DNA from: a virus
Lineage: Duplodnaviria > Caudoviricetes
Strand: one strand, 5' to 3'
Virus record (IMG/VR): IMGVR_UViG_3300036893_000002
Coordinates: 1 to 62,337 of that record
DNA length: 62,337 nucleotides
The notes below the pieces were generated by a model. That model searched no databases, was not told the origin of the DNA, and saw nothing but the letters and a program-made list of their open reading frames with translations. Of this stretch, positions 57,653-60,607 are shown piece by piece. Numbering within the stretch: position 1 is the stretch's first letter; every line of letters begins with the position of its first letter. Both the position numbers and the translations under genes were made by a program.

Positions 57653-60607
57653 ATGAATCAGAAATATCATTTGATTATGAATGGCAGTAAGAGGGATCCT
57701 ATTATTCTTAGGACCCCGCATGTGGAGGGTCAGAAGTATAACTCAGCCACGATGTTCCACGAGATATATGACAGGCGTCAGTTCTTGGAACAGCTTGGTA
57801 TTCCATTTGCGATGGCTACCGTGACTGAGAGGTCACAAGCCGAAGACTTGTTGTTGAATGGTCGAATGATCAATGGTGAGCATTGGTTTGCTCCTATTGG
57901 TTATACCAGGGATGATAGCGCAGTGTTCATTCTCACTCTGGGGGATTATACTCCAGAGCATATGTTGGAGCTGTTGGGTATGAGAATGAATGAAGATCCA
58001 AAGCTTCTGCGTACTAACCTTGCAAAGTGGGATCACACTTTCAAGGTCAGTAAGTATATGAAGCGGCTTTGGTCACATCATCGTAGTTATATCCAGGGTA
58101 CCGTGATTGAAGACCTGGGTGATGTGATCAAGGTTAAACTGGACAATGGTGAGGACATTACCGTTCGCTATGCCGATTATGGCAAGCTGGTGGACGGTAT
58201 GAACCTGGTGGCCAGTCGTTTGATGAGTGTATTACCAGTCAGTGATGAAGTCAAGCTCAGTGCTGATACTGGCACTGGTTTGCGTCTCACTGTGTTGAGT
58301 CCGAAAGGATTCAGCAAGGGTCATGCTATTGTGCTGGGTGATTTGGAGTATGACCTGGTGTTATTCAATAGCAAGAAGTTGCTGTTTGGTGACCGGTTTA
58401 CATTGGGTATGGATGCCCTGCATTCTGGTGGGCTATATACCGATGCTCAATCGATCATCAATTTCCAGATGTATAACACACCTATGTTGGGTGAGTGGGC
58501 TGAGAAGTTTATGAGAGAAGTGCTGGATGCTATCCAGGACGAAGAGAAGATTCGTCATATGTTGGGTGCATACGGCATTGACTTTCATAAGGACTCAGCG
58601 ACTGGTCAGTATTATGATAAGGAGAAGGGATGGGCACTGGAGCGTATGCTACAGGGGGGTGTTGGCATTAAGCAACACCCAGCTGGCGTACGTAAGGTAA
58701 GTAACTTGTTTATGAAAACAGTAATGTCCTGTGAGTATGGCCCGAGTGATAGCAAGGGTCGTACTCGCTCATTGCGTATACCTGTGCCTCCTGAGTGTGG
58801 TTGTGCCAGGTATATTATGGTTGATCCAACTATCTTTGATACCACTGGTACACCATCATTAGCTGGAGTTTTGCGTGGCTATGATTGTGCTGTCCGTGGT
58901 CATCAGGGTGAGGTGGTTATCCATCGGCAGCCTAATGCACATCGTGGTGAGGCTGTGAAATTGGATGCTGTTGCTAACCCATGGCTTATGAGTATGGATA
59001 CCGGTACATTCATATTTGTAAGTTGTGATTCAATTGAAGAGGTCTGTGAAGTACAGGGTGGTGGCGATCAGGATGATCGGGAGGTGATTTACACCGACAA
59101 GCGTATGGTGGATCACCTCAAGTCATTGCCTACGTATTTTGTGGAGCCTAAGCAGGTAAAGAAAGAAGTAAAGCAGGTGCCAAATAGGTTTATGGATTTG
59201 GCATCTATACCTGTGTATGACAAGCGTCAACTGATTACGATCATAGCTAATCAGGAACAACAACGTGTGAACATTGGTCAGGCTGTCAATCCTATTATGT
59301 TTGACACTCTGATCACTGATGAGCGTCGTCAGATTATGGATTATCTGTATACACTCATTGGTAATCCAACTATGGATCAGGCCAAGCTACAGAAGGCCTG
59401 GGATGTATTGGAGGAGTTCAAGGGTAATAGGTTAATTACTATTGCCTCTAACCTGGAACAGATCATTGATGCTGTGAAGCGTGATGGTGCTGATGTCAGG
59501 GCATACGCTAAACAGATCCTTGATTTCTGGGCCTGGTTGCCAGTATGTCCTGAAGTGTTCTTGAGAGGAGGGTTTGAGAATCGTGGTAGGCTACCAATAT
59601 CTCGTCGAGATGAGAATCATCCTATTGTAGTCAAGACCAATCTTGACTATGTATTTGATGATATCAAGAAGATGAGACAGGAGTTGGAGGATATGGTAAC
59701 TATTCTCACTTGGCAGATGTGTGAACATCCGTCAATGGAGATCTTGACAGATCCAACTCGAACGGCAGCAAGGCCAACTGCTCTTGCCATTAAGATGTTT
59801 TATGGTGAGCAGTTAAGGGAGATTATGGCTAAGGTGCCTGAGGATGACATTGATGGACGTATTCAAGGCTTTATCAAAGTCGATGAGAATACGTACAATC
59901 AGTTCAAGGATCATCCGCAGATCATTGATGCTATGGTTGAGCTGTATGCGATTGTGTATGATCGTGTACAGCCGACGGCTCCTATCGATGAGCAGACTGG
60001 TCGTCCCAAGCCTTATCCTGATGGTATCTTGTGGGGACCGAGGATGAGTGGGTTGACTATTGAAATGCTTGATAGGGTGGGGCTTGCAGGAAGGTATGTG
60101 GAAGCTACCATCTACAAACAACAACGGAAGTATTTCCGTCATGCTGTCCTTGATGTCAATATCAAGGATGGTGTGATTACACAGGAGGGTACCAATGTGG
60201 AGATTGGTATGATTGATCCAATTGCGGATGGTAAAGCCAAGCTGGATCATGGCTTGGTTAAGGTGCCATCTCATTTGGTAATACCGAAGCTACGCATTCC
60301 ACCTCCCTCTGTGAGTGTGTATACCGTTGTAAATGGTATGTTTACACGCAATGCCACACCAGAGGAGGTGCAGGCCTGGACGTTGCATGGTGTCAAGCAA
60401 GAGCATGTGCATCTGAAACCATATAAGTATATGGGTGCTGATATGGTTGAAGAGCATGCTGTTGCTGTTGTATTAGTGGATAGTGGTGTTGTGATTGGTA
60501 ATTTGACGAGAGAAGATGCTCCTCAGATTACCGAGCTCACAGAAGGGTGGTTGACTCGTGGTAATACACCAAGGACAATGCGTGTCATTGTCAAGGGAGG
60601 GAGATAA
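57653..60607 (+). CDS. YonO-like single-subunit two-barrel RNA polymerase (non-virion candidate)
   Basis: 984 aa; VDGMNLV and LRLT...GFSKGHAIV (RdRP/YonO-type first barrel), VIHRQPNAH and QGGGDQDDR (catalytic barrel), C-terminal HIRAN-like segment. Confidence 0.75.
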   Translation: MNQKYHLIMNGSKRDPIILRTPHVEGQKYNSATMFHEIYDRRQFLEQLGIPFAMATVTERSQAEDLLLNGRMINGEHWFAPIGYTRDDSAVFILTLGDYTPEHMLELLGMRMNEDPKLLRTNLAKWDHTFKVSKYMKRLWSHHRSYIQGTVIEDLGDVIKVKLDNGEDITVRYADYGKLVDGMNLVASRLMSVLPVSDEVKLSADTGTGLRLTVLSPKGFSKGHAIVLGDLEYDLVLFNSKKLLFGDRFTLGMDALHSGGLYTDAQSIINFQMYNTPMLGEWAEKFMREVLDAIQDEEKIRHMLGAYGIDFHKDSATGQYYDKEKGWALERMLQGGVGIKQHPAGVRKVSNLFMKTVMSCEYGPSDSKGRTRSLRIPVPPECGCARYIMVDPTIFDTTGTPSLAGVLRGYDCAVRGHQGEVVIHRQPNAHRGEAVKLDAVANPWLMSMDTGTFIFVSCDSIEEVCEVQGGGDQDDREVIYTDKRMVDHLKSLPTYFVEPKQVKKEVKQVPNRFMDLASIPVYDKRQLITIIANQEQQRVNIGQAVNPIMFDTLITDERRQIMDYLYTLIGNPTMDQAKLQKAWDVLEEFKGNRLITIASNLEQIIDAVKRDGADVRAYAKQILDFWAWLPVCPEVFLRGGFENRGRLPISRRDENHPIVVKTNLDYVFDDIKKMRQELEDMVTILTWQMCEHPSMEILTDPTRTAARPTALAIKMFYGEQLREIMAKVPEDDIDGRIQGFIKVDENTYNQFKDHPQIIDAMVELYAIVYDRVQPTAPIDEQTGRPKPYPDGILWGPRMSGLTIEMLDRVGLAGRYVEATIYKQQRKYFRHAVLDVNIKDGVITQEGTNVEIGMIDPIADGKAKLDHGLVKVPSHLVIPKLRIPPPSVSVYTVVNGMFTRNATPEEVQAWTLHGVKQEHVHLKPYKYMGADMVEEHAVAVVLVDSGVVIGNLTREDAPQITELTEGWLTRGNTPRTMRVIVKGGR

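Follow-up and report, generated by a model that had tools for sequence, protein, structure and literature searches.

A family of predicted two-barrel RNA polymerases from uncultured phages with a conserved DxDD in place of the DxDGD catalytic loop

Asp-x-Asp-x-Asp is the textbook signature of the two-barrel polymerases. Within the accessible text of the papers cited here and below, phage enzymes related to YonO or to the RNA-dependent RNA polymerases (RdRPs) are described with DxDGD or DxDxD (PMC2919709, PMC7824862, PMC10770324), and the latter motif was the search key that uncovered the enzymes of the crAss-like phages and of the Thermus phage P23-45 (PMC10770324 for P23-45). YonO from the Bacillus prophage SPbeta is DNA dependent, transcribes the late genes of SPbeta, and requires its Asp triad for activity (PMC5467207). 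In P23-45, the pre-early genes, which include the gene for the non-virion RNA polymerase (RNAP), are read by a tail-fused virion RNAP (PMC10770324). The subject of this study is a 984-residue protein encoded at 57653-60607 on the plus strand of the IMG/VR record IMGVR_UViG_3300036893_000002, a phage sequence of 62,337 bp that was analyzed over its whole length and is called the window below. The protein shows a metal-binding loop shortened to DxDD and is probably an active non-virion DNA-dependent RNAP of the clade formed by QDE-1, the RDR enzymes, and the phage RNAPs, in which this loop has been rebuilt.

The loop is located in the second, beta-prime-like catalytic double-psi beta-barrel (DPBB) (58778-59128, plus strand, residues ~376 to 492, delimited by VIA-align). 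An earlier note on this DNA, made from the sequence alone, placed an HRQP motif and a GGGDQDDR motif in this region at the spacing of a catalytic barrel, with the Gly of DxDGD missing, and the analysis bears this out. H424-R425-Q426-P427 is encoded at 58922-58933 (CATCGGCAGCCT), and D472-Q473-D474-D475 is encoded at 59066-59077 (GATCAGGATGAT) in the context QGGGDQDDR. R425 and D472 are 47 residues apart, as HMMER aligns them in QDE-1 and RDR2. In that alignment, made with a 77-member profile of the family, R-Q-P is paired with RSP of QDE-1 and KNP of RDR2 and GGDxD-D is paired with GGDYDgD and GGDLDgD, with the canonical Gly appearing as an insertion relative to the DxDD family. An hhalign comparison with YonO independently leaves the single Gly residue of DNDGD without a partner, so that the loss of the Gly is seen as a one-residue deletion in two independent alignments. 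The third Asp stands at i+3 rather than i+4; all three Asp residues are present, and the D-x-D-x-D spacing is not kept. The commonest residues at position 476 are R, S, N, A, and T, none of which is acidic.

The conservation of DxDD among homologues, which the earlier note left to be checked, is nearly complete. Of the 191 family proteins collected, 159 span the loop in the hidden Markov model (HMM) alignment, and 158 of these read DxDD with no insertion; the sole other case is a 382-residue fragment, and GG(x)DxDGD is found at the catalytic loop in none of the 159. Judged by sequence, DQDD is the norm of a large family and not a peculiarity of the 984-residue protein. An alignment of 77 members with 17 to 48% identity to the query shows ten columns that are invariant in all members, K134, R138, G182, K222, P427, D472, D474, D475, G542, and D606, while R425 is kept in 76/77, K241 in 74/77, and an acidic residue (D or E) at position 181 in 70/77. 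R425, P427, G469 to G471, D472, D474, and D475 are unchanged in all 49 homologues (26 to 49% identity), and the motif is therefore not a product of chance. Such strict conservation speaks for a functional active site.

The residues common to all two-barrel polymerases include R446 and P448 of Rpb1 and D837, K979, and K987 of Rpb2, according to the accessible text of PMC2919709. Apart from the spacing of the third Asp, all residue classes listed there are present in the DxDD family. The first, beta-like barrel region (58193-58462, plus strand, residues ~181 to 270) contains D181-G182, K222, K241, and D264/Q266. HMMER aligns D181-G182 (58193-58198) with DGIG of RDR2 and QDE-1, K222 (58316-58318) with YKG of RDR2, and K241 (58373-58375) with MKK of RDR2. 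D181, K222, and K241 would thereby supply the acidic and the two basic residues of the beta-like barrel, with their equivalence to the Rpb2 residues drawn through RDR2.

A separate observation concerns 14 relatives in which D-x-D-G-D occurs outside the aligned catalytic loop. In 13 of them (P0019, P0022-24, P0027, P0032, P0034, P0037-38, P0040, P0048, P0065, and P0097), it lies at residues 276 to 331, apparently a variable loop, and in P0109, it lies at residue 425. A motif-only scan would choose the wrong site in these proteins.

The AlphaFold model of the 984-residue protein, built on a 49-row alignment, has a predicted local distance difference test score (pLDDT) of 87.3 and a predicted template modeling score (pTM) of 0.82. 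Foldseek ranks QDE-1 (2j7n_A; E 3.9e-15) and RDR2 (7w82; E 8.7e-15) at the top, with further matches to the Thermus phage RNAPs (8f72_A, E 3.9e-8; 8f5m_A, E 1.2e-7), to crAss gp66 (6vr4_A; E 6.2e-4), and to bacterial beta-prime. VIA-align, which is independent of Foldseek, gives RDR2 7w84_A (Z 18.8; 601 residues aligned) and QDE-1 7y7p_A (Z 15.8; 643 residues aligned), followed by the phage RNAPs P74-26 gp62 (Z 14.1), P23-45 gp96 (Z 10.4), and crAss gp66 (Z 8.6); QDE-1 covers residues 1 to 835. Isolated DPBB domains match residues 381 to 491 (7dbo_B, Z 7.0; 7dww_A, Z 6.6), and the PhiKZ RNAP beta-prime piece 7ogp_A matches residues 376 to 492 (Z 7.0). With RNAPs leading both fold searches and isolated DPBB domains falling on the catalytic region, the two-barrel fold is as secure as a prediction can make it. 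Among solved structures, QDE-1 and RDR2 are nearest, with the Thermus phage proteins gp62 and gp64 next. The best matches in BFVD are uncharacterized proteins of uncultured phages, some automatically named "RNA dependent RNA polymerase," together with A7XX94 of P23-45; YonO is absent among the 50 BFVD matches listed.

A word-indexed search of 5.8 billion proteins yields 49 homologues of ~950 to 1,000 residues at E <= 0.001, which are 26 to 46% identical to the query over the best BLASTP segment. When the profile of these 49 is run against 1.84 billion proteins, at least 267 cluster representatives reach E <= 0.001. The query and the 49-member profile find nothing relevant among PDB chains, and the 77-member profile reaches QDE-1 (5fsw_A; E 1.5e-6) and maize RDR2 (7w82_A; E 6.7e-4). 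The Pfam RdRP family PF05183 is matched at E <= 0.01 by 11 of the 49 homologues, the best at 1.5e-10. In PHROGs, the query matches one unannotated family only (E 0.0055). The hhalign comparison with YonO (from NC_001884) gives E 0.096 with alignment A1 and E 1.9e-4 at a probability of 47.6% with alignment A2, a weak match whose 115 columns surround R-x-P and the Asp loop. The label "YonO-like" given earlier is thus apt for the clade and does not extend to membership in the YonO family.

The DxDD family is large and found only in metagenomes. Among 50,697 GenBank phage records, neither blastn and tblastn with the query nor tblastn with the diverse relatives P0053, P0121, and P0068 gives a match, and a scan of 185,579 species genomes returns a single 6-kb contig of a metagenome-assembled genome.

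The C-terminal beta-rich domain (60296-60604, plus strand, residues 882 to 984) resembles HIRAN by fold only. VIA-align matches it with 3k2y_A (Z 7.6), the HIRAN domain of HLTF (4xzg_A; Z 6.5; 24% identity), and Rad5 (6l8o_A; Z 6.3), all below the program's caution line of Z 8. The first match in the ESM Atlas is a HIRAN cluster with the weak score of 0.75, and no Pfam family, the HIRAN family PF08797 included, matches these residues at E <= 1. The domain is kept in the close subfamily, whereas for most of the distant representatives the match to the profile ends near position 865. The predicted HIRAN identity is a lead rather than a finding. Near the other end of the protein, residues 145 to 175 (58085-58177, plus strand) form a small SH3-like beta-barrel with a Pfam Myosin_N match below the cutoff (E 5.9e-4), and the Myosin_N match is also seen in 8 of the 49 homologues.

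Compared with QDE-1 from Neurospora and Thielavia and plant RDR2 (PF05183; 2J7N, 5FSW, 7Y7P, 7W82, and 7W84), the phage protein is likewise a single chain with two DPBBs, shares the fold over residues 1 to 835, has DG, KG, R-x-P, and GGDxD in alignment, and keeps the spacing from R to Asp. In contrast to these enzymes, which have DxDGD and 11 to 14% identity, it has DxDD, the additional C-terminal beta-rich domain, a Pfam score below the cutoff, an origin in a double-stranded DNA (dsDNA) phage, and probably a DNA template. The Thermus phage enzymes, the non-virion RNAPs P23-45 gp64 and P74-26 gp62 and the tape-measure-fused virion RNAP gp96 (8F72, 8F5M, and 8H2M), are also single-chain two-barrel RNAPs of phages; they are shorter (~600 residues compared to 984) and show the DxDxD signature, with DFDGD in gp96 in the accessible text of PMC10770324. 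YonO, from a tailed phage, is a two-barrel polymerase consisting of a single peptide, and its R-x-P and Asp loop can be aligned with the corresponding motifs of the DxDD family. Both polymerase genes adjoin a block of structural (late) genes; the difference is DNDGD in YonO and a gap at the Gly position in the DxDD family. The virion RNAP gp66 of the crAss-like phage phi14:2 (6VR4) is another phage two-barrel enzyme with a noncanonical residue in the metal loop (DFDxD, as far as the accessible description goes), but gp66 keeps the five-residue spacing, is 2,180 residues long, and is packaged in the virion.

The carrier is an uncultured large contractile-tailed soil phage with a dsDNA genome of ~215 kb, and the window is estimated to hold 29% of the genome. 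Metagenomes of peat and of the rhizosphere contain this phage. A long series of minus-strand genes at 1-56017 forms the structural block with the tail sheath (12334-14547), the portal (40268-42421), and the large terminase (44457-46496). The polymerase gene is separated from this block by a divergent region of 1.6 kb and is a member of a plus-strand operon of small open reading frames (ORFs), which have a near-identical ribosome-binding stretch in common. The ATG of the polymerase gene is preceded by the ribosome-binding site GAGGTG, and the N terminus MNQxYH is kept in homologues. A relative of 215,395 bp (G001), rated 100% complete, has exactly one gene of the DxDD family, the product of which is 41% identical to that of the window. 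The beta-prime domain PF00623 is not found in this genome, in a search whose control gave a signal in each of 14 genomes.

A second RNAP-like protein is encoded in the tail module at 1-3519 (minus strand), where the window edge leaves the N-terminal 1,173 of ~1,590 residues, with R-H-P and GADDDKD. The homologue in G001 (L006:262-5031, minus strand) has 1,589 residues, shows RHP followed by GADDDKD, and is 53% identical; its gene lies ~52 kb from the polymerase gene, the same arrangement as in the window. When the G001 homologue is aligned with 19 of the 20 related proteins found (all except P0192, which is 99% identical to it), R403, P405, D440, D442, and D444, in the numbering of a 701-residue fragment, are invariant. 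A model of residues 700 to 1400 of the G001 homologue, of moderate quality (pLDDT 70.9), has its best Foldseek match at E 1.4e-5 and matches Pol I A190 (7ob9_A; Z 13.3), archaeal A' (2pmz_A; Z 12.6), Rpb1 (Z 12.3), vaccinia RNAP (Z 11.7), the AR9 beta-prime piece 7s00_d (Z 10.2), and P23-45 gp96 (Z 8.1). On this model, the tail protein resembles the largest subunit of multisubunit RNAPs, to which it is nearer than to gp96 (Z 13.3 compared to 8.1), and it is a candidate virion RNAP. As had been noted from the sequence, the two proteins of the window deviate from the canonical motif in different ways: the tail protein keeps the DxDxD spacing with Lys for Gly, whereas the 984-residue protein loses the position. 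An HMM search of all ORFs in the window detects no paralogue of the polymerase by sequence, and hhalign of A2 with the tail protein finds nothing (E 0.73); the kinship of the two, as far as the models allow, lies in fold and motifs only.

The presence of a second RNAP-like protein in the tail module, as in P23-45, makes a program with two polymerases plausible. By analogy with P23-45, the beta-prime-like protein would be injected from the tail and read the plus-strand operon, which is headed by a noncoding element. The 984-residue enzyme would be made early from this operon and would then transcribe middle and late genes, for example, the divergent structural block of 56 kb. Its active site would lie between the two DPBBs, with D181, K222, and K241 contributed by barrel 1 and R425-x-P427 and D472, D474, and D475 by barrel 2. 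Relative to every characterized two-barrel polymerase, the residue between the second and third Asp is lost and the third carboxylate adjoins the second; the DxDD loop would nevertheless hold the catalytic Mg2+ ions, and the enzyme would be active.

Several points weigh against this interpretation. The spacing i, i+2, i+4 of the Asp residues is called invariant in the known two-barrel polymerases in the accessible parts of PMC2919709 and PMC7824862, and the DxDD loop might therefore not bind metals in the usual way. The query scores 12.9 bits (E 0.044) against PF05183, below the gathering cutoff of 23.8 bits. The closest solved relatives, QDE-1 and RDR2, use RNA, or RNA as well as DNA, as the template, so a DNA template is no more than probable here. 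A search of G001 for PF00940, the T7-like RNAP family, carries no information because its control was silent everywhere. No convincing promoter motif common to 13 intergenic regions of the structural block emerges from a k-mer search. On the side of chemistry, adjacent aspartates hold the catalytic metals in the palm-type polymerases (GDD and YxDD), which makes DxDD chemically plausible.

The template leads to the first alternative, an enzyme that is mainly RNA dependent or uses both RNA and single-stranded DNA like QDE-1, and that makes complementary RNA or dsRNA or initiates at 3' ends instead of being driven by promoters. QDE-1 and RDR2 are indeed the best matches in both fold and sequence. 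HIRAN in HLTF and Rad5 binds 3' DNA ends, and the HIRAN-like C-terminal domain (Z 6.3 to 7.6; Atlas cluster score, 0.75) would in this case hold a 3' end. This likeness remains under Z 8 with no Pfam support, most of the distant relatives are without the domain, the carrier is a tailed phage with dsDNA, and every tested phage member of the clade is DNA dependent in the accessible text of PMC10770324 and PMC5467207. A mainly RNA-dependent or dual enzyme is thus unlikely, and a DNA-dependent RNAP is the preferred assignment.

The departure of the loop from all characterized RNAPs might also reflect a changed chemistry, that of a DNA polymerase or primase comparable to PolD or of another nucleotidyltransferase, as two-barrel cores, PolD among them, can make DNA (accessible text of PMC7824862). 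No PolD chain occurs among the Foldseek and VIA-align matches listed, RNAPs top both, and the architecture of residues 1 to 835 follows QDE-1 and RDR2, which leaves such a change very improbable. Hardly any weight falls to a catalytically dead relative kept as a scaffold or as a DNA- or RNA-binding factor, to which the noncanonical triad and the Pfam score of the query would fit. Dead enzymes usually lose catalytic residues, and here the catalytic positions and the three Asp residues are invariant across the family at 17 to 48% identity to the query.

The sequence itself is supported by contigs from four metagenome runs that were not flagged as possible sources, which cover the whole gene at 95 to 100% identity. 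The DQDD codons at 59066-59077 are identical in these contigs, with no variant between 58959 and 59149. Variation among the four runs is found at 22 sites, 11 synonymous and 11 not, none of them at an invariant residue, and the contigs show no indels in the polymerase gene. A sequencing or assembly artifact derived from a canonical DxDGD gene, raised earlier as a possible refutation, is refuted by the recurrence of the same codons in these runs and by DxDD in 158 of 159 relatives from many sources.

A conserved noncoding element at 56130-56225 (plus strand) heads the polymerase operon. Its conservation extends from the window to a relative in which the polymerase shows only 41% identity. The core 15-mer of the element (56203-56217) is single copy in the window. 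In all four phages found to have both the 15-mer and the polymerase, the match is exact, is on the same strand, and precedes the polymerase gene by 0.65 to 1.9 kb; two other phage records contain the 15-mer and lack the polymerase. RNA folding of the element gives no consistent structure (z -2.4 and -1.2, plus strand), so the element may act as DNA and may be a promoter or an operator. Sigma-70-like sites are not enriched (10 found compared to 14.9 expected). Two copies of a hairpin at 56460-56545 and 56885-56970 (plus strand) are followed by ATGTACATTA-N4-AT-N-TGTACAGA and a near-identical ribosome-binding stretch, AAGGAGAATAnC; each copy precedes a small plus-strand ORF, with 2 matches compared to 0.03 expected. 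At 61632-61678 (plus strand), after an ORF ending at 61617, a perfect-looking 20-bp hairpin with a T-rich tail is the likely terminator of the polymerase operon.

The small ORFs 3' of the polymerase gene (60609-60977, 61126-61614, and 61981-62337) match no Pfam family, and no obvious counterparts were seen among the downstream ORF translations of G001, as judged by eye only. An Rfam scan of 55500-62337 gives no credible match, the window contains no tRNAs, and no RNA run is among the sequencing runs listed as holding the stretch. In the tail module, an ORF of 1,415 residues (3617-7864, minus strand) has a restriction-endonuclease-like MTES_1575/DUF559 domain at residues 577 to 670 (E 1e-18), the remainder being without any family. 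Three further minus-strand proteins of the structural block, of 1,117 (23225-26578), 540 (42422-44044), and 492 (36627-38105) residues, match neither Pfam nor PHROGs families at the thresholds applied.

Other enzymes already provide precedents for the fold, clade, and likely role of the DxDD protein; what is new is the broken rule of the catalytic loop. A full-text literature search found no two-barrel polymerase with DxDD; the supplementary alignments of the 23 RNAP families of PMC10770324 lay outside this search and might list one. A wider proposal is tentative and more doubtful: DxDxD is not obligatory, a phage clade seen only in metagenomes transcribes with DxDD, the HIRAN-like module of the close subfamily may bind a 3' end and let the enzyme start at DNA ends or nicks, and the enzyme works in tandem with the beta-prime-like polymerase of the tail.

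If the DxDD loop is active, adjacent aspartates hold the catalytic metals in a two-barrel polymerase, a solution otherwise known from the palm-type polymerases, and surveys for the DxDxD motif would have missed a whole clade. A family that keeps the other catalytic residues with a shorter loop would show the freedom of the two-metal site and is a natural test case for the roles of the Gly and the third Asp. It would also widen the sequence rules by which viral RNAPs are found. For the phages themselves, it suggests that large phages of soil and peat may do without host transcription, having one polymerase in the tail and a second made after infection.

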